From: a virus
Direction: 5' to 3' (one strand)
Virus record (IMG/VR): IMGVR_UViG_3300034007_000002
Span: 1-37,729 of that record
Length of the DNA: 37,729 nucleotides
Of this stretch, positions 2,688 to 22,433 are shown one piece after another. The position numbers and the translations under genes were made by a program. Position 1 is the stretch's first letter, and each line of letters begins with the position of its first letter. Under the pieces are notes generated by a model, which did no database searches, was not told the origin of the DNA, and was given only the letters and a program-made list of their open reading frames with translations.

Positions 2688-3613
2688 TGCCCGAGAGTGT
2701 CGTTAATTTTGTCGGCCCCTACACGGCGCAGAGTCTCATTGACCACATCGGGACTCCGACGCCGACGACGGCCGTCTGCTGGAAGCTCAGACCCGACCCG
2801 GCAAGCCCGCTCTACGCCTCGGGTCTGGAAGTGCGCGCCACCTCGCACGACCGGCCGCTCGTCCTTCCCGGCCACGGCTCTGCGTCGTTCCTGCCCGGCG
2901 TGGCGGGTATGCCGACGACGATTGACACCGAGAGCGGCCACGAATCGGCGGGGCTTCAATACGAGACCGTCTTCAACTCGGCGGGAATAACGCGCGAATC
3001 ACTCACGGCCGGGGATTGGGTGAAGGCGCGCGTCGAGATTTACACGGTCAACGTCAAAGCCCTGAACATGGGGCAGCTTATAGAGTTCGCGGGCTTCCTC
3101 GGCCGCGCCGACGAAGAGGGCGAACTGTGGAAGGCCGAGGCGCGACCCCTGACCGCCGTCGCGCAGGCGCAAGTCGGGAGGCTCACCTCTGCCCGCTGCA
3201 CCGTCAAGCGGCTCGGGGATGCGCGCTGCAAGGTCAATCTCAATGCTCCGGCCGTCGGGGACGGGGGCGCCATCCTCGTCAACGGCACTCTGACGCAGGT
3301 CGTGAGCGTGACACGCGTCCGCGCCTCTGCGCTTACGCAGACCGGCAACTATTTCGAGCTTCTTAAATTCACGTCGGGGCCGCTCTCGGGGCGGGAGTAT
3401 GAGGTCAGGGAATACGACCCCGCTAATAAAGAGTTCATCCTCCGCGACCCGATGCACCTGCTGCCGGCGGTCGGTAACACTTTCACCGCGACGCGCAGGT
3501 GTAACCGCGACCCGGCCGACTGCGTGCGCATCTACGCGAACATCATCAACAACCGGGGCTACAGGTTTATTACCAACGTCGAGCAGATCAACAAGATTCA
3601 GAGGGCTTCCTGA
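2687..3613 (+). CDS. Tail hub protein, DUF2163 / BR0599-like (RcGTA g13-like)
   Basis: ATGA start/stop overlap with the upstream gene. Contains RCTVKRLGDARCKVNL and a C-terminal RRCNRDPADCVRIYANIINNRGYRFI Cys motif typical of this family. Confidence 0.8.
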   Translation: MPESVVNFVGPYTAQSLIDHIGTPTPTTAVCWKLRPDPASPLYASGLEVRATSHDRPLVLPGHGSASFLPGVAGMPTTIDTESGHESAGLQYETVFNSAGITRESLTAGDWVKARVEIYTVNVKALNMGQLIEFAGFLGRADEEGELWKAEARPLTAVAQAQVGRLTSARCTVKRLGDARCKVNLNAPAVGDGGAILVNGTLTQVVSVTRVRASALTQTGNYFELLKFTSGPLSGREYEVREYDPANKEFILRDPMHLLPAVGNTFTATRRCNRDPADCVRIYANIINNRGYRFITNVEQINKIQRAS

Positions 3614-4098
3614 TGTCGGAGACAACCGCACTCTACAGGCCGGGACTCGTTACCCGCGACGACATCGTGAGGGTCGCACGCACGCTCAAAGGCGTGCCGT
3701 TCAGGCATCAAGGCTCTTATCCCAAGACCGGCCTCGACTGTCGCGGTGTCATCGAGTACATCGCCTTCGCGCTGTGGGGGCGATCTATCCCCGCACGCGA
3801 GTACCAGCGCAAGCCCGACGGCGCGGAGTTCCTTGAGAAGATGCGCGCCGAGATGACGGAGATTGACCCGGCGGACGCGCGGCACGGCGACGCGGTGCTG
3901 ATTCACTTCCCGCGAGACGCCGAGGCGAGGCACGGCGGCGTGCTCGCCGACGGGCCTGTGTTCGCCGCCGACCCTTCCGAGCGGATGCTGATACACGCCT
4001 GGGAGAGTCGCGGCGAGGGTGAGGTGAGGGAAGAGCCTTTGCGCGGGTGGAAGCGCAAAAACATTGATTACGCCTTCCGCTTCCCCGGCATCAGTTAG
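3613..4098 (+). CDS. NlpC/P60-family cell-wall peptidase (RcGTA g14-like, tail-associated)
   Basis: GVPFRHQGSYPKTGLDCRGVIEY (catalytic Cys context) with downstream His residues (HGDAVLIHF...RHGGV). ATGA overlap with the upstream gene. Confidence 0.8.
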   Translation: MSETTALYRPGLVTRDDIVRVARTLKGVPFRHQGSYPKTGLDCRGVIEYIAFALWGRSIPAREYQRKPDGAEFLEKMRAEMTEIDPADARHGDAVLIHFPRDAEARHGGVLADGPVFAADPSERMLIHAWESRGEGEVREEPLRGWKRKNIDYAFRFPGIS

Positions 4099-4109
4099 GA
4101 GGTAGACGA

Positions 4110-7100
4110 GTGGCCGCAGCAGTTCCCTTACTGATTCAGGTCGGCATCGCCGCCGGTACTTACGTGGCGTCGTCCCTGCTCGCGCCCAAGCCGAAGCTCA
4201 ACGCCGTGGACAAGGGGCGCTTCGACGACATACGCATCACGACGGCGGAGGAGGGCGGCTTCATCCCCCTGTGCTTCGGCCAGCGCGCGCGGCTCGCGGG
4301 TAACATCTTCTGGGGCACGGTCACGCGCGAGTACGTCTCGCACACCGAAGGCCGGACGGGAGGGAAGGGCGGCAGCGCGCAGCAGCCGACCCCGCCGACT
4401 AACACTTACAGTTATAAAAAGTCGTTCGCCATCATGGTCTGCGCGACGCCGGTCAAATCCTACCGGCGCATCTCGGAAAACTTAGAGACGATTTACAACA
4501 CCCTCGGCTCGGAGCTGCGTGAGGACTTCTACGAGGCGGAGAATCACGTCCTGGCCGGGGGCGCTTCCGCAGTCGTTGACGGCTCCTGCTCGGGCGGGCA
4601 GGCGGTGCGTCTCGCGGCCTCGGGGCAGTATGTCGAGATCGAAGTGACGGCGCTCTTCGCCGGGCTTCACACGGTCGTCATCTTCTACAAGGCGTCCGCC
4701 CCCGCGCAGGTCTATCTGAGCACCAACGGCGGCAGCGAAACCCTTGTGAGCCTCCCGGCCTCCGGGGGCGACCCCATAAACGTGACGGCGACCCTGCAAC
4801 TGAGCCGGGGGCTTAACACCATCAAGTTTCGCGGCGGCACGGGCGCGGCCGACCTTGACCGCATCTATGTCTCGGGCACCGGCTCGCCGCCCGAGTTCGA
4901 CCCGCCCGAAGTCACCAACCTGATAGACACCACCGCCAGCTTCCCCGCAGACGCGGATGACCCGACGCCCTTCTACAACACCGTCCAGACCTTCGACGCG
5001 ACCGGCTATTTCGAGGGCTTCACCACGGCGGGCGGTCAGGCGCGGTTTGAACTCTTCGCGGGCAAGGAGACGCAGCCACAGTCCGCCATCATCGTCGCCG
5101 TCGAGGGCGCCTCGGAGACGCCGGCCTTCCGCGACGTGTCTTACTTCGCCACCGAGGACTATCTGCTCAAGGAGGGGCAGCTCGGCAACTTCGTCTTTGA
5201 GATTGAGCCGGAGATTCAAGACCTCGACGCAACGCTCCTGTACCTCTACACGCTCGACGGGAAGGTCACGGCGGCGGATTGCGACTTCTCGCTGCTGGCT
5301 GGGCGAAAGATTTCCGGCCTCGTCATCGACCACCGCGCTCCGCTCTCCGAAACCGTGACCGCGCTTGAGGCGTGGTTTAATTTCGACATCGTTCCGAAGG
5401 GCGGGAAGATAACGGCCATCCCGCGCGGCGGGGCGGTGGCGGCGCGACTCTACGAGCGCGAGCTGCGCGCGCACCTCTTCGGCGAGGAGCGCCCGCTCGC
5501 GGCCGTGAAGGTCGCGCACGAAGACCCCACGGACTTGCCCGGCGAGGTGGATGTCGTCTACCTGGACTCGTCGCCCTCGAAAGACTTCCACAGCGGCAAC
5601 CAGACCGCGCAGAAGATCGTCGGCTTCTCATTCGACAAGGAGACTCTGACCTTCCCCATAGTCGGCGACCCGGACACCGCCCACGCGGTCGGGATGCGCT
5701 ACCTCGACGCCCGACACCTCGCGGCGAAGCCGGCGGAGCTGGTCTGCGGCTTCGGCAAGCGGCACTTTATCCCGACCGATATCCTCGAAGTAGAACTCGA
5801 AGACGGGACGCTCTACACCTACCGCGTCGGCTCGAAGCAGGCCGACCTTCAGGGGATGGTCAAGTTCGGCGCCGTGCCCGAGCGCGCGTCAATCTACGCG
5901 CAGGGCGGCGCGGGCGTCTCGGGCAGGGGCGGCGACGTGCTGCTCATCCGTCCGCCGGCAAACACCCTGCTCGTCGTCGCGGACTGCGTGCCGATTCGTC
6001 AGGAGGATTTGGGGAGGCTTATCGTCTACGGCGCGGCCTGCCCGCGCGGCGTCGGCTACTGGCCGGGCTACCACCTGAACAAGAAAGACCAGAACGGCGA
6101 GGCCGAGCGCGTCGGCGGATTCGAGACGGCGGCGACTATCGGCATCGTCGAGACGGCCTCCCAGAGCGCGGCGAAGTTCGGCTTAGAGGCCGCGCGCTCC
6201 TTCGTGGTGAAGCTCTATAACGGCTCGCTGGAGTCTCGCACCGAGGAGGAGGTCAGAGCCGAGCGCGTCAACCTCGCGCTCTACGGCTCGGGCAACCGTT
6301 GGGAGGTTATCCAATTCCTGACCGCGACGCCGCAGGCGGCCTCGGCGCCCTTCGTCGCTCAGTACCTCGTTACGGGTGTCGTCTCTGGCCTTTACGGCAC
6401 CGAGGTCTTCTCGGCCAACCATCAGGCGGGCGACTACTTCGTCCTCTTCGACGGCGCGGTCGCGTCCTTCCCGATGCGCCCGGCCGACGTAACCCAGACC
6501 TTCGACTTCATCGGTCAGACGGCCGGGCAGGCGCTCGGCGACGCCGAGGTCGCGGGCGTCTCGACGCTCAACTTCCAGGGCAACTCGGCGAAGCCGCTGG
6601 CCGTCTCCCGCGTCGAGTTGGACGACGAGACGCAGCTCGCGCCGAGGGATTCGGCCGGCTCGATCCTCATCGCGCCCGACCCGCGCACCAACCCCGAGAT
6701 TGTCGGCGACGAGTACCTGATCGACTACCTGAGCGACGACCGGAGCACAATCATTCACTCGGACTCCTTCGGCGAGGAGCAGGAAGTCCCGGCGCTCTTC
6801 AAGTCCACGGCGTCGCTCTATTCGGGGGCGGGTGCTAACAAATACGTCAACGTCTCGGGCAACACGCTCTCGGGGACGGGTGACGATTCTGTCATCGGGC
6901 CGAGCGGTTCCGCGCGCGCGCGCTCGCTGCAACGCATCCTGAAGGCGGGGAACTACGTCGAGGCGACGTTGAAAGCCGGCTCGACCTTCGCCTCCGACTC
7001 GGCGCAGGTCGGCCTCATCAGCGAGCAACTGGATTGGACGAACCCCGGCACCGGCGCCGACTACGTGAAGACCGACTATCTCGTCAGGCTTTTCTACTCG

Positions 7101-10416: not shown

Positions 10417-10445
10417 TTGACACCACGCACCTCCGGTCGTATCGT
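10417..10445 (+). promoter_or_regulatory. Sigma70-type promoter TTGACA-17-TATCGT for the Cys-rich peptide gene
   Basis: TTGACA at 10417-10422, a 17-bp spacer, TATCGT at 10440-10445. The same hexamers and spacing occur at 19394-19422 and 20343-20371. Confidence 0.65.
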
Positions 10446-10505
10446 TCCCCCGTCACGGCCCCTCAACCTCATCGGCTTATGCTACTCACGACGAAGGAGA
10501 ACATC

Positions 10506-10700
10506 ATGCTGAAACGACTCACGCGCAAACTCATCACACTGTCCGTGCTCGTCGTCGCCCTCGCGGCCGTTTCGTCCGCTCCCGCCTCGGCTACGAGCTT
10601 TAACTGGGAATGCTATCAGGCACTCGACCCGAATACGGGGGAGTGCGTTATAATTTGCTGCGATGGTTCATGGTGCGACGGGACCCCCTGCCCAACCTAG
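10506..10700 (+). CDS. Secreted Cys-rich mini-protein (64-aa precursor, 6 Cys in about 35 mature residues)
   Basis: AAGGAG lies 6 nt upstream of ATG 10506. The product is signal peptide MLKRLTRKLITLSVLVVALAAVSSAPASA followed by TSFNWECYQALDPNTGECVIICCDGSWCDGTPCPT. Confidence 0.8.
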   Translation: MLKRLTRKLITLSVLVVALAAVSSAPASATSFNWECYQALDPNTGECVIICCDGSWCDGTPCPT

Positions 10701-11437: not shown

Positions 11438-11713
11438 CTACTGAGCGTCCCCTTTTCGCAGCGCCTCAAGCTCGCGCCGCATGGCCTCATACCTGAACTC
11501 GTCAACGCGCGGCAGGGACGAGACGAGCCGGTCTTCGATGGCCGACGAAAAGCTCTCGCGCTCGCCGGCTTCGATGTAGGTGAAGGCGTGGACGAGCAGC
11601 AGGAGCCGCGCGACCTGTTCGGCGTTCCCGGCGCTCGTGATGCTCTCCGCGAGGTCTGCCGCCTCTTCAAACGTGAGCGGGTTGCTCCCGCGCCAGTCGG
11701 GTTGCTTCGGCAT
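11438..11713 (-). CDS. Hypothetical protein (91 aa), last gene of the leftward operon
   Basis: Its ATG shares one base with the TGA of the upstream gene (TGATG). The product starts MPKQPDWRGSNPLTFEEAADL. Confidence 0.6.
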   Translation of the reverse strand: MPKQPDWRGSNPLTFEEAADLAESITSAGNAEQVARLLLLVHAFTYIEAGERESFSSAIEDRLVSSLPRVDEFRYEAMRRELEALRKGDAQ

Positions 11714-12189
11714 CACGCGCCCCCTTTCTCGGCGCGCGCGGCCCGCAACGCGCGCCGCCTGTCCGTCCCGGTCAACGCTTCGACGCGCGCAGCCGAAGGG
11801 ACGAAGGGCGGGGCGCTGAGAACGTCGCACGCCACCGGGAACAGCGCCTTGACCGCCGCCGGGTATTCGATGAAGTGCCGGAGCGCGACGCCGCAGACCT
11901 CTAGGGCGTAGGCGCTAACCGCGTCGTAAACCTCCGGCGGCGTCGCGGGGTCACTCAGCACGGCGGCGATGTTGTGCGCGACGCGGGCGACCTCGCCGCG
12001 CGCCACGTCTCCGCGCGGCCTCCCGCCTCCCATACCTATCTCACTCAGTGTCGCCAGTTCGGCGGCCGTGTATTCCGTCAGCCGATACCCGCCCGCGACC
12101 AACGTGCGGCGGCGGGCGAAGTCGTCTGCCCACTCGCGCGCGGCGGCCTTGCCCTTCGCGCTGCGCCTCTGTACTTTCTTCGTAGTCAT
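11713..12189 (-). CDS. Hypothetical protein (158 aa) with basic N-terminal tag MTTKKVQRRSAKGK
   Basis: The internal ATG at 12189 reproduces the N-terminus of the neighbouring gene. The longer tracked ORF start looks like out-of-context extension. Confidence 0.6.
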   Translation of the reverse strand: MTTKKVQRRSAKGKAAAREWADDFARRRTLVAGGYRLTEYTAAELATLSEIGMGGGRPRGDVARGEVARVAHNIAAVLSDPATPPEVYDAVSAYALEVCGVALRHFIEYPAAVKALFPVACDVLSAPPFVPSAARVEALTGTDRRRALRAARAEKGGA

Positions 12190-12266
12190 TAGTTGCACTT
12201 CCCTTCTAAGTTGTGGACTTTGGCCGAAGGGGCGGGCGGTGTGGAGCACTACCCGCCCCCGCATCT

Positions 12267-12836
12267 CTACACGCCCACGACGGACGCGCGCACCTCTTCG
12301 GCCGTCGCGTCATCGTTCAACGCCTCCCGCAGCGTCTCGAAGATTGAGAGGAACTGTTCCGGTACGCCGTCGCAGTTCTTCGTCATCTCCAGGAGCGTGA
12401 GCGGCAGCATGACGCGCACGACGGCGGGCGTCGTCCACGACACGTTACTGCCGTCGAGAATGTCGTCCGTGAAGACGGCCCCGAACGCGTGCCGGAAGGC
12501 GTCGGAGCAGTTCGGGTGCTCAAGCGTGCGGCAGAGCATTTCCACGGACGCGAGCCACTTGCGGAGGTCGCCGTCCGTGACGGCCCTATCTCGCATCCGG
12601 CCGGGCAGCGTGACGACCATGTGAACGTCTCCGGGTCGCGTCTCGTCGTAGACGACGGCGAGGCGGGAGAGCGCGAACGGGTTGTTGTGGTGGTTCTCGT
12701 AGTGGGCGAGCGCGGCGTCGAAAGCCTTCCGCGCGTATTCGACGGCGTCGGTCTTGAACGCCTCGGCGGCGTCCGGCCTCTCGGCCGGCTTGCCCTTGCG
12801 GCTCGCGCCGCGCTTCTGTACCTTCTTGGTGGTCAT
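12267..12836 (-). CDS. Hypothetical protein (189 aa) with basic N-terminal tag MTTKKVQKRGASRKGK; first gene of the leftward operon
   Basis: AAGGGA SD upstream of the ATG. The N-terminal 15 aa are paralogous to those of 11713..12189. Confidence 0.65.
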   Translation of the reverse strand: MTTKKVQKRGASRKGKPAERPDAAEAFKTDAVEYARKAFDAALAHYENHHNNPFALSRLAVVYDETRPGDVHMVVTLPGRMRDRAVTDGDLRKWLASVEMLCRTLEHPNCSDAFRHAFGAVFTDDILDGSNVSWTTPAVVRVMLPLTLLEMTKNCDGVPEQFLSIFETLREALNDDATAEEVRASVVGV

Positions 12837-12973: not shown

Positions 12974-13002
12974 AGTCTAACGCGAGAGAAAGGGAAAGTC
13001 AA
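12974..13002 (-). promoter_or_regulatory. Leftward promoter TTGACT-17-TAGACT
   Basis: The minus strand reads TTGACT ttccctttctctcgcgt TAGACT. The -10 is embedded in CGCGTTAGACTT. Confidence 0.55.
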
Positions 13003-14609: not shown

Positions 14610-15308
14610 ATGGACGAAATAGCAACTCAGAAGTTCGTAAAGGAAGCAGTCTCACAATTCGTAGAGCTATGGGAAGATATTCCTGAAGCCCAACTAATCA
14701 AGCGCGACTCCAATCACTTCTTAATTGTTAAACCAACCTCTCTAATAAAAGAACTAAATGATGCCATACCATACGCAACGATACACATAAACTTAGAAGA
14801 GTTGTCCAGGCATTTTTTAAAGTCCGGGTCTATCGGGGAGCCAAGTATAGATAAAAGGTACATTGCTAAATTACAGATTCACGACATGCTCCGTACGGCT
14901 GAACTTGCCCCTAGCGTCTTCTCCTATTTCCTTAATTTTCTAGAGATATTGACGCTCCGAGAAGGTTTGGAGTCCCTATTAGGGTCTTTATCTGAAGACT
15001 CAAAGACAAAACTTGCAGAAGTTGCTGAACGCCTATTTCAAGTCATGTTGCAGCACTATAAGCTTCTGAAGGAGACAAAGCCCGGAGCCTCAAGTGTTAT
15101 TACTGATTTTGAAGCGCTTGAGGTCTTCCGCAAATCTAGGAATAGAGTGCTTTCCAAACGCCAATTAGCAAAAGAGATGCAAACAACTCCGGCTACCGTG
15201 CGTAGTTGGCTTCACAGAAAGGGATTCAAATCATCTGAAGAATTGCTGGATGATCTTTTAAAGCGTATTCACACTCTAATAGACAATGCACGGGAGGGTG
15301 AGAAGTAA
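14610..15308 (+). CDS. Low-GC paralog 1: unknown N-terminal domain plus C-terminal HTH
   Basis: Aligns by eye with 15380..16147. The N-termini share MDE..Q...K..V..F...W.D.PEAQ..KRD..HFLIVK and HINLEE. The C-termini share KPGASSVI...LAKE..T.PATVR.WL..KG..S..EL.DD. Confidence 0.75.
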   Translation: MDEIATQKFVKEAVSQFVELWEDIPEAQLIKRDSNHFLIVKPTSLIKELNDAIPYATIHINLEELSRHFLKSGSIGEPSIDKRYIAKLQIHDMLRTAELAPSVFSYFLNFLEILTLREGLESLLGSLSEDSKTKLAEVAERLFQVMLQHYKLLKETKPGASSVITDFEALEVFRKSRNRVLSKRQLAKEMQTTPATVRSWLHRKGFKSSEELLDDLLKRIHTLIDNAREGEK

Positions 15309-15379: not shown

Positions 15380-16147
15380 ATGGACGAAGAGGCAATCCAG
15401 AGGCTTGCGAAGAACGTAGTAGTGACGTTTCTAGTGGATTGGAAAGACACGCCCGAGGCGCAGGTGGTTAAGCGAGACGGGGCACATTTCTTGATCGTGA
15501 AGCTAGACTCACCGTTCTCTGCTGCGTTACATATCAATCTGGAAGAGAGATGCGAGCATGAGCTAAAACATCTCTACGAAGTAGTCGGGACGGAAGAAAG
15601 TGCGGACGATACTACTGACCTTATTTATAGTCTCGTCTATCGCCTACCACAGGAACTAACTTACATAACTAGAAGCGTGCCCGGTCTCTTCATCTACAGT
15701 CTTCATCTGCTGGACTTGTTAGCGTACCGTGAGCGCCTACGATCTGTATCAGAGTCTTTAACTCAAGGCAGACGGGAAAGGACTGAACTAGTAGCCAGAA
15801 TATTAACTCAAGGGTTATTACTGGCGCATGGCTTAACAGAGAGAAAGAAGCCGGGAGCATCAAGTGTCATCGATGACGACAAAGTACTTGATATTTTTCT
15901 TAGACTCCAAGGTGACGTGCCTTCAATCCGTAGGTTAGCAAAAGAACTAGAAACCGAACCTGCCACCGTGCGTAACTGGCTTCGCAAGAAGGGCTACAAC
16001 TCGCCTAAAGAATTAGCAGACGACGTAGTAAATTCAAATTCCAACTCAAAAGTAGATTTCTTTCTAAAAGTCAAAAGGTTACTTACTAAAAGTCAAAAGG
16101 GAACAACGGAAAGAAAGCAAAGGGGGAGGGTAGAAATTAAGCCCTAA
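15380..16147 (+). CDS. Low-GC paralog 2: unknown N-terminal domain plus C-terminal HTH
   Basis: Shares the motifs listed for 14610..15308. Its last codons lie inside the left arm of the 33-bp inverted repeat. Confidence 0.75.
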   Translation: MDEEAIQRLAKNVVVTFLVDWKDTPEAQVVKRDGAHFLIVKLDSPFSAALHINLEERCEHELKHLYEVVGTEESADDTTDLIYSLVYRLPQELTYITRSVPGLFIYSLHLLDLLAYRERLRSVSESLTQGRRERTELVARILTQGLLLAHGLTERKKPGASSVIDDDKVLDIFLRLQGDVPSIRRLAKELETEPATVRNWLRKKGYNSPKELADDVVNSNSNSKVDFFLKVKRLLTKSQKGTTERKQRGRVEIKP

Positions 16148-16211
16148 TCCTACCCGGGTAGAATTAACCTCGAATTATTACCTGGGTAGGATTAGGGCTT
16201 AATTTCTACCC
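16128..16211. repeat. 33-bp inverted repeat (one mismatch, G-U compatible) around an 18-nt spacer
   Basis: The left arm GGGTAGAAATTAAGCCCTAATCCTACCCGGGTA (16128-16160) pairs with TACCTGGGTAGGATTAGGGCTTAATTTCTACCC (16179-16211). Confidence 0.9.
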
Positions 16212-16213
16212 AA

Positions 16214-16241
16214 TTGACAGGATTTAGATTGGCGTTAGACT
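16214..16241 (+). promoter_or_regulatory. Promoter TTGACA-16-TAGACT
   Basis: TTGACA at 16214-16219 and TAGACT at 16236-16241. The -10 context TTGGCGTTAGACT is identical to that at 13033-13045. Confidence 0.55.
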
Positions 16242-16247
16242 GCGATT

Positions 16248-16506
16248 ACAGAAGCGGCGGGTGTGGCCCTGGAAAGTCAACACCCGCCGCGAGTCAAACC
16301 AGGACTTTTGACAGCCCCGGCTCGTTTGCGAGTGTAGCGAGAACCGACCCGGGGCGCAACAGCCATGAAGGCCGCCCCGTGATGGCGCTCTCTAGTAGGG
16401 CGTCGGCTGAGCCGTAGGTTTAGGTTTCTCGCGCACCGCTTTGCGTGAGATGGCAGGGCGTTCGTCGTCGGGGGTCACGGCCCGACGGCGGACGCCTTTT
16501 GCTTTT
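16248..16506 (+). ncRNA. Candidate structured RNA or attenuator leader of about 260 nt between promoter and terminator
   Basis: No convincing ORF. There is an 11-bp perfect stem, GCGGCGGGTGT...ACACCCGCCGC, at about 16254-16290. Nested CCCCGG/CCGGGG helices follow, and the region ends in the strong terminator at 16457-16506. Confidence 0.35.
16457..16506 (+). terminator. Strong rho-independent terminator
   Basis: A 16-bp stem pairs 16457-16472 with 16481-16496 (two G-U pairs) around an 8-nt loop, followed by TTTTGCTTTT. Confidence 0.7.
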
Positions 16507-16526
16507 GACGGCGGCCGGTATCACGC

Positions 16527-16859
16527 ATGAAAAACCCCTTTCAGAACGGTTCGCTACGTTACGTCGAGGCGAACGGCGTCCGCTTTACTCGATCCGTCTG
16601 CGGGTACTGCGGTCTTCCCTGTGTCTACCTGGGGGAGGCCATCCGCATCGACTTAGCCGAGGGCGGCTTCCAAATCCTCCACGTCTGCCTCCCCTGCCGA
16701 CGGCACCTGTGTTTAGACCTGCGGGGGTTATCGGACGCCGAAGTAGACCGCCTCGGATATCCCAGCGGGTATCCCAGCGGGTATCCCAACCGCTCGCCGA
16801 GAAACGAGCGCCACCTCGAAGAAGTGCACAGCCGGTGGGAAAGGAGACGTGCAGCGTAA
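16527..16859 (+). CDS. Zinc-ribbon protein (110 aa) with a GYPSGYPSGYP repeat, translationally coupled to the primase gene
   Basis: CGYCG...C...HVCLPC forms a four-Cys motif. Its TAA overlaps the primase ATG (TAATG). The alternative frame, the N-terminal extension of the 774-aa ORF, is Arg-rich and protein-unlike. There is no clear SD before ATG 16527. Confidence 0.55.
   Translation: MKNPFQNGSLRYVEANGVRFTRSVCGYCGLPCVYLGEAIRIDLAEGGFQILHVCLPCRRHLCLDLRGLSDAEVDRLGYPSGYPSGYPNRSPRNERHLEEVHSRWERRRAA
16756..16791. repeat. Tandem 12-bp repeat x3 (GATATCCCAGCG GGTATCCCAGCG GGTATCCCAACC)
   Basis: Read directly. It lies inside the zinc-ribbon ORF, about 70-100 bp upstream of the primase start. Confidence 0.9.
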
Positions 16860-18769
16860 TGGCTCAGCCCGCCACGGCCTTCACGAAGCAGGACGCGAAG
16901 AGGGACCGCCAGACTTACCAGCGGCTCGCCGGCATCGTTGACCGCCTCCTGCACCGTGACATCCAACGCCTCGACGAAGAGACGGCGCGGAAGTTCTTCA
17001 AGTCGTCGGTCTTCGCCACCATCCACAGCCTGCACGGATTCCTGAACGGCCGCGAGGTCTCGCACGACAGGCCGGTGATGAAGGCTCACAAGTTCGTCGT
17101 CGAGCACTTCGGCTACCGCGGCGACCGCGAGAACGACGCGGCCGTCGCGCGCTTCATGGCGCGCCACCTCTCGGGGCTGGCCGACGCGGAGAGGGCCGTC
17201 GGGCACCGGTACGTCACCGTCCGCCGCGCCGACAATCAGACCCAGCTCTTCACCAGCTACGAGGGCACACCGCTGCTCGACGCGGCCGAGTGGGTCTACT
17301 TCACGGCGCGGCAGAAGCCCGACTACTGGAAGAACCCGGCGGCGGCCGTGACGGACGATTTGCTCGACGCCGCGCTCGCCAAACTCCCCGAGGTCAAGAC
17401 GCGGGACGACTCCATGCCGTGCGGTCATGCGCCCGAATCCGGCGAGTGCGACGAGTGCGTGCCTAAGACCTTCTGCGGGCATCCTTCGGGGTCGGGCCAG
17501 TGCGAAGAGTGCGAGAAATGGGAGGCGGGCGACCTGATGAACGATTCAGTCGTCAAGGGCATGTGGACGAAGATAATAAACGCCGCCGAGCGGGCGTTAA
17601 TCAAGGAGTTCGATTCCGGCGCGGACCCGGAGCTGGCCGCCGCCAAACACGCCGCGAAGATTATCGAGATGGGCAAGCATATCAAGGAGAAGCTCGCCCG
17701 CGAGCGGCTTCGGGCGGCGATGATGCCTGCGCGGCGACATGACGAGGAGGACGAGGACACGCAAACGACGCACAGTGGTAAAGAAAGTGTTACCTCAAAC
17801 GCGGGGGGTACCCCTGACAAATTTGTCAGGGTACCCGATGATTATGTAGTTGAACCGGTTGAGGTTACTGAACCGGCCGCAGAGGATTTACCCGAAATTC
17901 AGCGCAACGCGCTCGAATACGCGGCGGCGGGGATCGCCGTCCTCCCGCTGTGGGGGGTCGCGGACGCGATTTGTGATTGCCCCGCGGGTTCGGAGTGCCG
18001 GACGGCCGGGAAGCACCCGCACAGCCAGCTCGCCCGGAACGGCGTCTACTCGGCTACGATCGACGGGCAGGTCATACGCGGCTGGTTCAAGAAAGACCCG
18101 CGGATCAACCTGGGGGTTGCGATGGGCGGCGCCCTCAACCTCATCTGCGTAGACATAGACCCGCGCAACGACGGCGACGCCTCGTATTCAGATTTGATAG
18201 ACGCCCACGGCGAAGACGCCTTTCCCGAGACGTTCACCGTGAAGACCGGCGGGGGCGGCTGGCACCGCTACTACAGGCTCCCCTACACCATCAAAGCCGA
18301 GAAAGGCGAGCTAAAGGGAAAGCTCGGCCCCGGCATCGACATCAAAGGCGCGGGCGGGCAGATAGTCGCGCCCGGCTCAGTTCACTCAAGCGGCGCTTCC
18401 TATCAGGTCGAAACTAACGCCTACATCGTGGAAGCCCCGGAGTGGATGGTAAACGTCCTGCTCAAGTCGGCGTCCGGCGAGAAGCCCGAGGTCGTTGTTG
18501 ACTTTCAGGCGCACAGCGACCGGAAGCGCGCGGGGGTGGGCGGCCCAATCATCGTCGAGGGCGAGCGCAACGAAAGGCTCTTTAAGGTCGGGTGCGCGCT
18601 GTGGGGCAAGGGCGAAGTGGGGAGCCGGGGGGAGTTGTTACAGCGCCTCTCCGAAGTGAACCTCAAAAGGGTGTCACCCCCGCTCGACTCGGATGAGGTT
18701 TGGAAGATTGTTGAGAGCATAGTGAGCCGCTACGCCCTAGGCGTGCCGATTAAGGAAGGTGCCGCATGA
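16859..18769 (+). CDS. Bifunctional primase-polymerase (Prim-Pol domain plus PriCT-like C-terminus) with a roughly 330-aa N-terminal region of unknown type
   Basis: AAGGAG lies upstream of ATG 16859. Prim-Pol motifs are GIAVLPLWG...GKHP...NLICVDIDPRNDG...GGGWHRYY...GIDIKGAGGQIVAPGSVH. The C-terminus GERNERLFKVGCALWGKG...PLDSDEVWKIVESI is PriCT-like. Confidence 0.85.
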   Translation: MAQPATAFTKQDAKRDRQTYQRLAGIVDRLLHRDIQRLDEETARKFFKSSVFATIHSLHGFLNGREVSHDRPVMKAHKFVVEHFGYRGDRENDAAVARFMARHLSGLADAERAVGHRYVTVRRADNQTQLFTSYEGTPLLDAAEWVYFTARQKPDYWKNPAAAVTDDLLDAALAKLPEVKTRDDSMPCGHAPESGECDECVPKTFCGHPSGSGQCEECEKWEAGDLMNDSVVKGMWTKIINAAERALIKEFDSGADPELAAAKHAAKIIEMGKHIKEKLARERLRAAMMPARRHDEEDEDTQTTHSGKESVTSNAGGTPDKFVRVPDDYVVEPVEVTEPAAEDLPEIQRNALEYAAAGIAVLPLWGVADAICDCPAGSECRTAGKHPHSQLARNGVYSATIDGQVIRGWFKKDPRINLGVAMGGALNLICVDIDPRNDGDASYSDLIDAHGEDAFPETFTVKTGGGGWHRYYRLPYTIKAEKGELKGKLGPGIDIKGAGGQIVAPGSVHSSGASYQVETNAYIVEAPEWMVNVLLKSASGEKPEVVVDFQAHSDRKRAGVGGPIIVEGERNERLFKVGCALWGKGEVGSRGELLQRLSEVNLKRVSPPLDSDEVWKIVESIVSRYALGVPIKEGAA

Positions 18770-19393: not shown

Positions 19394-19422
19394 TTGACAG
19401 CCCTCCCCTCCCGGCGTATCGT
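19394..19422 (+). promoter_or_regulatory. Promoter TTGACA-17-TATCGT for 19497..19754
   Basis: TTGACA at 19394-19399 and TATCGT at 19417-19422. The leader resembles the one at 10417-10505. Confidence 0.65.
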
Positions 19423-19496
19423 TACCGCGTTCCTCGGTTGCGTTACGGTCCCTCAACCTCAACGGCTCCAGGCCACTCACGACGAAGGAGAACACC

Positions 19497-19754
19497 ATGC
19501 TGAAACATCCCGCGGGGCGACTCGCCCGCCGCCTCTCCGCCCTGTTCATGCTCGCCGCCGCCCTCACGACGCTCCTGTCAAATCCCGTTAGCCACCAAGC
19601 CGAGGGTTGGGCGGGCACTCCCGACTGGCCGCCGTGCTGTGGGTATACGTGTTCTCTGTCAATAGACGATGAGACGCAACAGTGCGTTATGACTTGCTGC
19701 CGGTGGCCGTCAGGCTGCATGACGGGCCCTTGCAGTCCAGAAGTGGAACCGTAG
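19497..19754 (+). CDS. Secreted Cys-rich mini-protein (85-aa precursor, 8 Cys), paralog of 10506..10700
   Basis: AAGGAG SD and a hydrophobic signal region. The tail CCGYTCSLSIDDETQQCVMTCCRWPSGCMTGPCSP aligns with ECVIICCDGSWCDGTPCP of the paralog. Confidence 0.8.
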   Translation: MLKHPAGRLARRLSALFMLAAALTTLLSNPVSHQAEGWAGTPDWPPCCGYTCSLSIDDETQQCVMTCCRWPSGCMTGPCSPEVEP

Positions 19755-19889
19755 GGCCCGATGACCCGGCGGCCGCGCTCCACGTGCCGATGCTGGGCGC
19801 GGCCCGACATCACAGAGCCCCACCTCTCATGTCACCGGTGACACCACAGACCTCTGGTCCGTAGTGTCAGGGGCCGGATAGAAGTAAAT

Positions 19890-19925
19890 GGGGGGGGCGG
19901 TACCTTCTGCGGTACCGCCCCCCCC
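19890..19925. terminator. Perfect 15-bp hairpin between convergent genes (likely bidirectional terminator)
   Basis: GGGGGGGGCGGTACC-ttctgc-GGTACCGCCCCCCCC. The flanking U-tracts are weak. Confidence 0.55.
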
Positions 19926-19947
19926 TCACCTTGTGCCGAAGCGGCCC

Positions 19948-20271
19948 CTACTGGCAGTAGAACAGGTCGGAGTAGTAGCCGGTCTCGCCGTTAGCGTCCG
20001 TCACGGTCACGGAGATGGTCCTGCTGATGCCGGAACATCCGATGCGCAGTGACTGCCCGCTCCCAGTAATCGGCGACGGCCCCCACGCATAGGTGTAAGG
20101 GGCCGTGCCCCCGTACACCTCGGTCGTACAGCGCAGTTGATCGTAGGCCAAGCCTATACAGTCTATACTGACGATTGGGCCTGTCCGGGCCTCGACAGGT
20201 TTGACCGGGGCGGCCAGCGGCGCGAGGGCGACGAACGCGAGGGCGAGCGCCAGAATCAGTTTATAACGCAT
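19948..20271 (-). CDS. Secreted single-domain Ig/SprB-repeat-like protein (107 aa), paralog of 9921..10277
   Basis: Signal peptide MRYKLILALALAFVALAPLAAP, then C-x10-C...YGGTAPYTYAW...VTDANGETG...C. Confidence 0.8.
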   Translation of the reverse strand: MRYKLILALALAFVALAPLAAPVKPVEARTGPIVSIDCIGLAYDQLRCTTEVYGGTAPYTYAWGPSPITGSGQSLRIGCSGISRTISVTVTDANGETGYYSDLFYCQ

Positions 20272-21575: not shown

Positions 21576-22433
21576 ATGAAGGCTTACAAGGATTTTGGCC
21601 TTAAAGAGAATCCATTCGTGCCGAGTCCGAACCCCCGGTTCCTCTACCTGACCGACCAGACGAATGCTTGCCTCTTCAAGTGCAAGTTTGTCATCGAGGA
21701 GCGGCAGGGACTCTCCCTCATCGTCGGGAAAATCGGCTACGGCAAGACTTCGGTGCTGCGCGAGCTCCTGAACGGGTACATCGACGACGAGACTTACAAG
21801 ATCGCGATGCTCCCGAACGGCAGCTTCCCTTCCGAGATGCAGCTCGCGAAGGCCATCTCCAGTGAGTTGGGGCTCCCGGGTCGCCGGTCATTACTCGCGC
21901 AAATAAATGAGATACGCGACTACGCTTTCCAGATTTACGGCGGCGGCGGGACCATCATTCTCATCATCGACGAGGCGCAGAATCTTAAGGGCGCTCAGTT
22001 CGATTTCCTCCGGGAATTGCTCAATTTTGAGAGTAACGAGGCGAAGACCATTCAGATCATCATCGCCGGCCAGCCCGAGATTGAAACCAAACTGGCGACC
22101 AAGCCCGCACTCGTCTCCCGCATCATCCTGACGAACTACCTGGATACCTTCACGTTCGAGGACATGGTGGCCGCCCTGGAGCACCGGATACGCCTCGCCG
22201 GGGGTAAGCTCGACATCCTCGGTGAGGACGCGTTGAAGGCTCTCTACGTCGCTTCCAGGGGCGTCCCGCGCGAGATCATGAAGATTGCCAACGCTTCCCT
22301 TCTCCTCGCGGCCGTCAACGAAACCAGACCGATCACCGACGGCATCATCAAGCTAGCGGTCGAGAACATTTTGAGCACGGAACGAAATGGAGAACCGGAA
22401 ACCACTGAACTTCGCGCAGGCGCTTCGCAGTAG
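21576..22433 (+). CDS. ExeA-like AAA+ ATPase (AAA_22 type; relatives include ExeA, TniB and MuB-like proteins)
   Basis: FGLKENPFVPSPNPRFLYLTDQ...LIVGKIGYGKTSVLRELL (Walker A) and IILIIDEAQNL (Walker B). Confidence 0.85.
   Translation: MKAYKDFGLKENPFVPSPNPRFLYLTDQTNACLFKCKFVIEERQGLSLIVGKIGYGKTSVLRELLNGYIDDETYKIAMLPNGSFPSEMQLAKAISSELGLPGRRSLLAQINEIRDYAFQIYGGGGTIILIIDEAQNLKGAQFDFLRELLNFESNEAKTIQIIIAGQPEIETKLATKPALVSRIILTNYLDTFTFEDMVAALEHRIRLAGGKLDILGEDALKALYVASRGVPREIMKIANASLLLAAVNETRPITDGIIKLAVENILSTERNGEPETTELRAGASQ

Follow-up and report, generated by a model that had tools for sequence, protein, structure and literature searches.

In phage lambda, both the replication genes O and P and the late genes lie behind a terminator that has to be read through, the respective arrangements being PR-nutR-tR1 and PR'-qut-6S RNA-tR', and in the latter the constitutive promoter PR' makes a short terminated RNA of 194 nucleotides (nt) with the Q gene immediately upstream. 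Plasmids such as pT181, pIP501 and pAMbeta1 have a structured rep leader with a terminator just 5' of the rep start codon and an origin nearby. The satellite phage P4 makes a small RNA from an untranslated leader that precedes its primase/replication operon, and silences the replication genes by premature termination (PMC4825925). In the Gifsy-1 prophage a single promoter gives rise to the short small RNA (sRNA) IsrK and, upon read-through of a Rho-independent terminator, to a long polycistronic mRNA whose first open reading frame (ORF) is translationally controlled by the leader (PMC4825925). Here we describe a cassette at positions 16214-16526 of the IMG/VR virus record IMGVR_UViG_3300034007_000002, the whole analysed stretch of which (37,729 nt) is referred to as the window; it lies directly upstream of the replication genes of a phage and was pointed out in an earlier note made from the DNA letters without database searches. 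The cassette is functionally closest to the lambda tR1/nut and PR'-6S-tR'/Q operons and to the RNA control of the P4 replication operon, while appearing to belong to none of these systems.

Judging from the sequence, we lean towards the reading that the cassette is a terminator-gated leader providing regulated entry to the phage replication operon. RNA polymerase would start at a near-consensus promoter (16214-16241) beside a long palindromic operator-like repeat, and would transcribe a structured non-coding leader of about 250 nt consisting of a 5' hairpin, a multi-hairpin junction, a further hairpin (H5) and the terminator. By default most transcripts would end at this terminator, releasing a short RNA of about 250 nt, and the genes for a zinc-ribbon-like protein and for Prim-Pol would be expressed only upon read-through by the polymerase. 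This read-through would occur by processive antitermination, the factor being either an early protein of the phage or host factors that load onto the leader, and acting in the manner of lambda tR1/nut or PR'-tR'/Q; that it depends on such a factor is most likely, since the leader contains no convincing competing antiterminator helix, leader peptide or antisense promoter. A second, translational layer, which is more speculative, may be added by pairing between the invariant start region, which lacks a Shine-Dalgarno sequence, and the 3' strand of H5. If indeed it is a gate, the cassette would mark the point at which these temperate phages decide between quiescence and replication, and would represent a new structured RNA family with an easily testable output, the read-through of one terminator. 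Its elements are the following:

16214-16241, plus strand: sigma-70-type promoter TTGACA-16-TAGACT, with a predicted start near 16248
16254-16290, plus strand: hairpin H1, with an 11-base-pair (bp) GC stem (16254-16264/16280-16290) that is extended by 3 bp and a bulged A and capped by the loop CCUGGAAA
16299-16320, plus strand: linker motif CCAGGACTTTTGACAGCCCCGG, predicted to pair with 16413-16425 (P1 helix)
16313-16455, plus strand: conserved RNA core, a junction with hairpins at 16318-16346, 16350-16379 (H3) and 16384-16404 (H4)
16456-16507, plus strand: intrinsic terminator, with a 17-bp stem (16456-16497, RNAfold) and an 8-nt loop, followed by UUUUGCUUUUG
16513-16530, plus strand: invariant segment GGCCGGTATCACGC-ATG-A, spanning the start codon and without a Shine-Dalgarno sequence

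Four more copies of the cassette were found in Pyrinomonadaceae phages or prophages (L254, L308, L311 and L001), making five with that of the window. L254 was retrieved from IMG/VR with a 23-mer of the RNA core in what was the sole productive pattern scan, those with the linker motif, the GGUUU tract or the H1 stem returning only chance matches or unrelated P2-like hairpins, and L308 and L311 were reached via homologs of a 255-amino-acid (aa) protein encoded upstream of the cassette. A search by nhmmer with the region against 241 loci recovered L001 only, BLASTN against GenBank phages and PLSDB plasmids gave no match, and a covariance model of the RNA core (CM R1), run against 66 loci, found only the five distinct copies, at 139-171 bits. 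From promoter to ATG, three independent relatives are 85-90% identical to the window, whereas the values are 56-73% in the 600 nt upstream and 53-62% in the 230 nt downstream, and the RNA core is 85-95% identical in the five copies. The alignment of L254 with the window is even limited to 16156-16544 (89% identity), a stretch that takes in the palindrome and promoter, the RNA in full, the terminator and the opening codons of the ORF that follows. The cassette is small, sharply delimited and more conserved than the surrounding genes, which makes it a clean candidate for study.

What follows the cassette differs between the copies: Prim-Pol is encoded in the window, L001 and L311, and a DUF3854 (Toprim-like) module in L254 and in a further relative, L309, in both of which it is followed by an excisionase-like helix-turn-helix (HTH) protein and an integrase. 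The cassette is therefore tied to the start of the replication block, which in the window lies at 16527, rather than to one replicase, and it is a conserved, portable unit that phages with different replication machineries exchange. More distant Prim-Pol phages (L245, L163, L003, L303 and L027) have non-homologous leaders of the same layout, with a promoter, a 5' hairpin, several GC hairpins, a terminator, a small ORF and Prim-Pol. A role as a primer-like RNA, which the earlier note had considered, finds no support in L245, where a Prim-Pol 94% identical to that of the window follows an unrelated 3' module, or in L254, which has the same RNA and no Prim-Pol.

The promoter and the terminator named in the earlier note were both recovered. 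The promoter matches 10 of 12 consensus positions, with a perfect -35 hexamer, and is one of five such 10/12 sites in the 37.7-kb window; its spacing falls within the 16-18 nt of sigma-70-type promoters. Neither the -35 nor the -10 hexamer varies in four copies (the window, L254, L308 and L311), in contrast to the spacer and to the 12 nt downstream of the -10. L001, L163 and L245 have promoter-like sites of their own at its place. The terminator has 16-bp arms (16457-16472/16481-16496), 17 bp in the RNAfold prediction, and a U-tract, TTTTGCTTTTG, at 16497-16507, and as a GC-rich hairpin followed by a U-tract it has the build of an intrinsic, Rho-independent terminator. Its hairpin (-38.7 kcal/mol, z = -6.4) makes it the strongest terminator-like site of the window on either strand, no terminator-like site is found on the minus strand at this position, so that the site is unidirectional in the window, and in all four variable columns of the stem a G-U pair is exchanged for G-C or A-U or the reverse, a change that preserves pairing in plus-strand RNA only. 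The ATG at 16527 follows the U-tract by 19-20 nt, likewise as noted before, and there is no promoter-like site between the terminator and the ATG; the replicase genes would therefore depend on read-through.

The stretch between promoter and terminator, described earlier as some 260 nt without a credible ORF, is indeed non-coding over about 250 nt. The sole plus-strand ORF (16214-16417, 67 aa) begins with a TTG inside the -35 hexamer, and the copies differ by indels of 1, 2 and 6 nt, with indels of 1-2 nt in the loops of H4 and H5 and one AGGTTT unit missing from L311; these break the frame, and no reading frame is therefore preserved. As RNA the segment 16248-16510 has a minimum free energy (MFE) of -136.8 kcal/mol (z = -5.66; 200 dinucleotide shuffles all fold less well), against -121.7 kcal/mol for the reverse strand, and in a GC-regressed MFE scan it ranks in the top 1% of 752 GC-corrected 263-nt windows of the phage. 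Besides its junction, the core holds a GGUUU-AGGUUU tract (16412-16428) and H5 (16427-16450). Variable columns among the five copies are concentrated in loops (15/36, against 7/82 in stems; Fisher p = 5.7e-5), and in the four best local helices all stem changes but one affect a single side and turn G-U into G-C or A-U or the other way round; read on the minus strand they would give A-C mismatches. The linker, which is common to the window, L254, L245, L001, L308, L311 and L027, has three purine transitions, all opposite a U in the predicted P1 helix. Since the stem switches are valid only as plus-strand pairs and the plus strand has the stronger fold, the functional strand is the plus strand.

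The leader matches no described RNA family; we regard it as a new and small one, which relies on a regulatory principle already known. The Rfam search that had been recommended gave no match at gathering thresholds (Rfam 15) in the whole window or in 12 related loci, and at E <= 10 the region 15900-16900 returned only microRNA-type matches on the 33-bp inverted repeat upstream and ctRNA_p42d (E = 9.5) on the terminator. Transfer RNA, transfer-messenger RNA and CRISPR-like repeats were excluded for the leader, as was a type III toxin-antitoxin system of the ToxIN kind, since the leader has no tandem repeats of about 36 nt (only AGGTTT x2) and the ORF downstream, which has four cysteines (Cys4), matches no toxin family.

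Among the described systems, lambda shares with the cassette a terminator to be read through, and the place of the Q gene is taken here by the gene for the 255-aa HTH protein. A short transcript ending before the operon, as in the Q/qut systems, is predicted from the sequence, with its start set by the promoter at 16214 and its end by the terminator at 16456-16507; a Q-family protein beside the promoter was however not found, the 255-aa protein having no Pfam, PHROG or Foldseek match, and no homolog of N was detected in these searches either. The window furthermore lacks a boxB-like pentaloop hairpin, the leader is much more structured than those of lambda, and the operator-like palindrome lies upstream of the -35 and not between the hexamers. 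The boxA core (U/G)GCUC(U/C)UU is bound by NusB-NusE (PMC3177189), and a boxA/nut site was rejected for the window, where the linker (GGACUUUUGA / GGACUUUU) bears only a loose likeness to boxA and matches 4 of the 7 core bases in the published sequence GCUCUUU (PMC3177189). A good boxA core, AGCUCUUU, is found only in the relative L303, at the aligned position, and may be a matter of chance.

Control of the terminator by the RNA itself, or by a small molecule, could take the form of a riboswitch-like junction, of an RNA like put of phage HK022, or of countertranscript attenuation as in pT181 and pIP501. The put RNA consists of two adjacent stem-loops of the nascent transcript that act on RNA polymerase without protein factors; in the leader H1 comes first, and the next predicted hairpin (16293-16312) is not conserved in L245 or L001. 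The layout of the leader would suit such control, as it presents a multi-helix junction closed by P1, then a hairpin and then the terminator; alternative pairings exist (16314-27/16342-55 versus 16335-56/16373-94, and H5 versus a long-range helix), and the unpaired GGUUU tract is invariant. Stepwise co-transcriptional folding however yields as the best competitor of the 17-bp terminator stem a helix of only 5 bp (CCCCG/CGGGG), and a classical attenuator was rejected on this ground and for want of a leader peptide. No Rfam family emerges even at E <= 10, and one of the AGGTTT units is deleted in L311. The likeness to pT181, pIP501 and pAMbeta1 extends to the 5' hairpin of the cassette, which could double as a countertranscript terminator, but no promoter-like site of at least 9/12 is present on the minus strand in 16248-16526, and ctRNA_p42d is the sole countertranscript RNA among the Rfam matches. 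All in all we regard intrinsic control of this kind as improbable.

The gated leader receives further support from the sequence beyond the terminator. After 5-6 variable bases past the U-tract, the segment 16513-16530 is invariant in all five copies, and the encoded proteins diverge after about three codons. UCACGCA (16520-16526), just 5' of the AUG, is complementary to UGCGUGA (16442-16448) in the 3' strand of H5, and in RNAalifold this helix, all bases of which are invariant, would clamp the terminator. The predicted pairing would account for the invariant start region and may point to a translational layer as in IsrK (PMC4825925). It likewise yields a candidate for elements of the seqA/seqB/seqC type, as UGCGUGAGA (16442-50) could pair both with UCUCGCGCA (16427-35) and with UCACGCA (16520-26), all of them invariant. 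The cassette resembles the P4 CI RNA (seqA/seqC) and the c4-type RNAs of N15 and P1 in that a small RNA would arise from a leader before a replication operon, but the third complementary element here lies after the terminator, and no C4 match was obtained by cmscan at E <= 10. In many relatives the terminator is followed, before the ribosome-binding site, by a motif (A)CACACGA and a second hairpin without a U-tract (L003 ~2595-2630, L303 ~3650-3680, L306 ~3183-3210, L242 ~4552-4592 and L307 ~3712-3750), an element that the window lacks.

The terminated RNA of about 250 nt could also be the end in itself, that is a stand-alone or dual-function sRNA acting in trans or, like IsrK, on its own read-through isoform. 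A promoter of its own and a very strong terminator bound a discrete, stable and highly conserved RNA, the cassette moves as a unit between phages, UGCGUGA is complementary to the region just 5' of the AUG, and IsrK sets the precedent of a prophage sRNA whose read-through form is the regulated mRNA (PMC4825925). IsrK has no sequence or Rfam similarity to the leader, however, it precedes an antirepressor and not replication genes, and its two isoforms have here only a proposed counterpart. The search for a target brought up none, the 17-nt sequence complementary to the conserved GGUUU tract being absent elsewhere from the window, and an RNAduplex scan for targets in trans was uninformative, the GC-rich genome giving a mean of -54 kcal/mol throughout. 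Moreover, a free-standing sRNA gene would not need conservation that runs past its terminator into a start codon, nor would it account for a downstream operon without a promoter of its own. We thus consider an sRNA as the primary function unlikely, if the foremost of the alternatives. The earlier note had left the choice between a discrete non-coding RNA and an attenuation or antitermination leader; the leader is favored by the lack of another promoter, by the conservation past the terminator, by the fixed position and by the plus-strand pairing of the terminator, while the discrete RNA of about 250 nt is retained as its expected default product, possibly with a dual function like IsrK.

Upstream of the promoter lie these features:

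15380-16147, plus strand: gene for the 255-aa protein, which has a helix-turn-helix-like segment at its C-terminus; gene and cassette are syntenic partners
16054-16097, no strand assigned: two 22-nt direct repeats (..CTAAAAGTCAAA) in the 3' end of that gene
16128-16211, no strand assigned: inverted repeat with 33-bp arms, 97% complementary, containing five copies of GGGTAGRATTA

The 255-aa gene is a tandem paralog of the gene at 14610-15308 (232 aa), the two HTH-type proteins being 39% identical, and its homologs (42-65% identity) are encoded directly 5' of the cassette in L254, L308, L311 and L001. Neither this protein nor the other early proteins match a Pfam or PHROG family, and its AlphaFold2 (AF2) model is poor (pLDDT 63.6), with nothing at E < 0.1 when compared by Foldseek against the PDB. 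The inverted repeat, whose left arm codes for the C-terminus of the protein (VEIKP), ends 2 nt short of the -35 hexamer, and as RNA it would form a 38-bp hairpin of -63.3 kcal/mol (z = -12); the five GGGTAGRATTA copies are clustered here and no exact copy occurs elsewhere. It is kept palindromic in L254, L308 and L311, changes being compensated on both arms, and different repeats are found in relatives with more distant HTH proteins, among them L001 and L245 with their other upstream regions. As the repeat follows the HTH protein and not the replicase, this protein is its likely ligand, and the inverted repeat is probably the operator for the 255-aa protein.

The 5' hairpin behaves differently from the rest of the leader. 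Its 11-bp stem is perfect, as had been noted, and the hairpin (-27.2 kcal/mol, z = -5.0) recurs in relatives as a module made up of a GC stem of 7-12 bp, a 3-bp extension and the loop CCUGGAAA(A). The apical part with the loop CCTGGAAA(A) is conserved, while the basal stems of the window, L027, L303, L163 and L020 are wholly different. The module is oriented as in the window in L303 (3375-3407) and L027 (3279-3317), but is reverse-complemented in L254 (9886-9924), L308 (5894-5934), L311 (~4360-4397), L245, L163 (4309-4338) and L020 (~484-520); in L254 it is the minus-strand hairpin that has the shape and energy (-27.2 kcal/mol) of the plus-strand hairpin of the window, the plus strand reaching only -22.6 kcal/mol. 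The occurrence in both orientations cannot be explained by a loop acting in plus-strand RNA. H1 could instead act in single-stranded DNA, whichever strand it lies on, or be a purely structural 5' hairpin flipped by palindrome-mediated inversion. A P4-like pairing of the H1 loop with the linker was rejected, since the loop is inverted in L254, L308 and L311 and the linker unchanged. Furthermore, L001, the Prim-Pol of which is 92% identical, agrees with the window in the 3' 200 nt and has a different 5' hairpin with an altogether different loop, and L245 shares the 5' hairpin and linker and has an unrelated 3' module; the leader is therefore a mosaic with its joint at the linker CCAGRACTTTTGA.AGCCCC. 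A stem GCGGCGGGTGT...ACACCCGCCGC with 10-nt loops forms a bidirectional hairpin in about 40 unrelated viral contigs (L263-L302, IMG/VR), in some of them directly after a TTGACA promoter, and its identity with the H1 stem of the window appears coincidental.

These properties of H1 bear on the notion that the locus is a replication origin, in which H1 would be an ssi-like primase hairpin and the transcript would activate or prime replication. At oriV of RSF1010 the ssiA and ssiB hairpins are recognized by RepB', a primase of the archaeo-eukaryotic type, and H1, though not the remainder of the cassette, resembles them in being a hairpin with a conserved apical or basal part, found on either strand by iterons and an AT-rich region, in a genome with an archaeo-eukaryotic-type primase. 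The AT-rich stretch 16040-16215 (38% GC), which encloses the 22-nt direct repeats, and the five GGGTAGRATTA copies do adjoin the replicase genes, and a conserved apical loop on covarying stems in either strand would suit an element in single-stranded DNA better than an RNA loop. Against this, it is the HTH protein rather than the replicase that the repeat motif goes with, the same repeats and H1 are present without Prim-Pol in L254, and L001 has other repeats and another H1 loop with a 92% identical Prim-Pol, so that H1 and Prim-Pol do not strictly co-occur; L245, likewise with a close Prim-Pol, has a different 3' module, and the remaining 200 nt of the cassette carry plus-strand RNA signatures and end in a terminator. 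An origin seems improbable to us as an account of the cassette. Equally improbable is a composite in which the cassette is a self-contained, exchangeable RNA switch, of a new aptamer or put-like class, and H1 with its loop CCTGGAAA a separate, orientation-switchable single-stranded element, read on either strand according to which one exposes it, such as a loading site for a primase or initiator, one 300-bp module thereby coupling origin firing and replicase transcription. The inversion of H1 with its loop conserved is a puzzle of its own, and could show how Prim-Pol phages choose their origin.

Several points weigh against a gated leader. The start site, the efficiency of termination and the read-through are all deduced from the sequence; no antiterminator protein was found, the early ORFs and the 255-aa protein being without Pfam, PHROG or Foldseek matches; no boxA core is present in the leader of the window; and a nut-like RNA site would hardly be expected to be inverted, as H1 is in most copies. 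The covariation that the earlier note proposed to look for is not significant, as among five close sequences 93.5% of the aligned cells are paired, with 13 one-sided changes and a single compensatory pair, and the score is equalled or exceeded in 389 of 500 shuffles. Upstream of Prim-Pol in the relatives, strong hairpin-plus-T-run sites number 20 on the minus strand and 19 on the plus strand, and the argument from a conserved plus-strand terminator is therefore weak across the wider family. The last two observations would also agree with there being no regulatory RNA at all: hairpins followed by T-runs are common on both strands of the intergenic regions of the relatives, and the terminator might do no more than insulate the early operon and the replication module from each other, the promoter match might be weak or due to chance, and the hairpins might simply accompany GC-rich palindromes. 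This we hold to be very improbable, because the cassette is 85-90% identical and its flanks only 51-73%, the promoter hexamers are invariant, the variation is biased towards loops (p = 5.7e-5), and insulation alone would leave the replicase without any promoter.

The genes behind the terminator are:

16527-16859, plus strand: Cys4 (zinc-ribbon-like) ORF of 110 aa with a CxxC...CxxC pattern, the first gene after the terminator
16859-18769, plus strand: Prim-Pol protein of 636 aa, with Prim-Pol at aa 351-529 and PriCT_1

The stop codon of the first overlaps the start of the second (TAATG), and the name zinc ribbon rests on the cysteine motif, the ORF having no Pfam match; homologs are found in L001, L245, L311 and L012. 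Within this ORF, three tandem 12-nt repeats (GGGTATCCCAGC; 16754-16789) code for YPSGYPSGYP, and since they are absent from the L001 homolog, they represent a recent in-frame expansion. The N-terminal 350 aa of the Prim-Pol protein (16859-17908) have no Pfam or PHROG match and remain conserved across some 40 full-length homologs with identities as low as 35%, and are thus an uncharacterised domain fused to Prim-Pol. In L305 (232-3545) the operon of the small ORF and Prim-Pol directly adjoins host-like genes, for a glycoside hydrolase 3 and a GDSL lipase, so that the replication module there forms one end of an integrated element. Past the replication block, the window encodes a 285-aa AAA_22/TniB-like ATPase (21576-22433), which may be helicase-loader-like or MuB/TnsC-like.

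The window represents a siphovirus-like temperate phage of about 38 kb with 62-65% GC, encoding a lambda-type large terminase, a portal, a capsid and gene transfer agent (GTA)-like tail proteins, and its early region (13.0-16.2 kb) is low in GC (46-51%) with seven small or unknown genes. The sources of the relatives are metagenomes of desert and soil as well as metagenome-assembled genomes (MAGs) of Pyrinomonadaceae (Acidobacteriota), one of the relatives being a prophage integrated in the Pyrinomonadaceae MAG GCA_036387455.1, and the phage is a phage of soil Acidobacteria. To our knowledge, no regulatory RNA of a virus of Acidobacteriota has been described. This phylum is a dominant one in soil and its viruses are almost unstudied (PMC11924767).

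Elsewhere in the window, a leftward promoter-like site, TTGACT-17-TAGACT (12974-13002, minus strand), has the -10 context GCGTTAGACT in common with the promoter at 16214 and, because it faces the rightward early genes, probably marks the divergent control region of the phage. A promoter-plus-leader unit of the layout CGTTGACA-N17-CGTATCGTT ... CCCTCAACCTCA ... AAGGAGA occurs in three copies (10417-10560 and 19394-19540 on the plus strand, 20371-20230 on the minus strand), each 5' of a small ORF with a signal-peptide-like start (MLKRLTRKLITLSVL.., MLKHPAGRLARRL.. and MRYKLILALALAFV..), which gives them the look of an expression cassette of the moron type that has been repeated. On the minus strand, 19700-19960 ranks second in the genome for excess structure (MFE -155 kcal/mol per 263 nt, residual z = -4.3) and includes a terminator-like G8/C8 hairpin of 15 bp at 19925-19890. 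Finally, the leftward genes 11713-12264 and 12267-12836 (minus strand) are tandem paralogs, the products of which both begin with MTTKKVQ(K/R)R.

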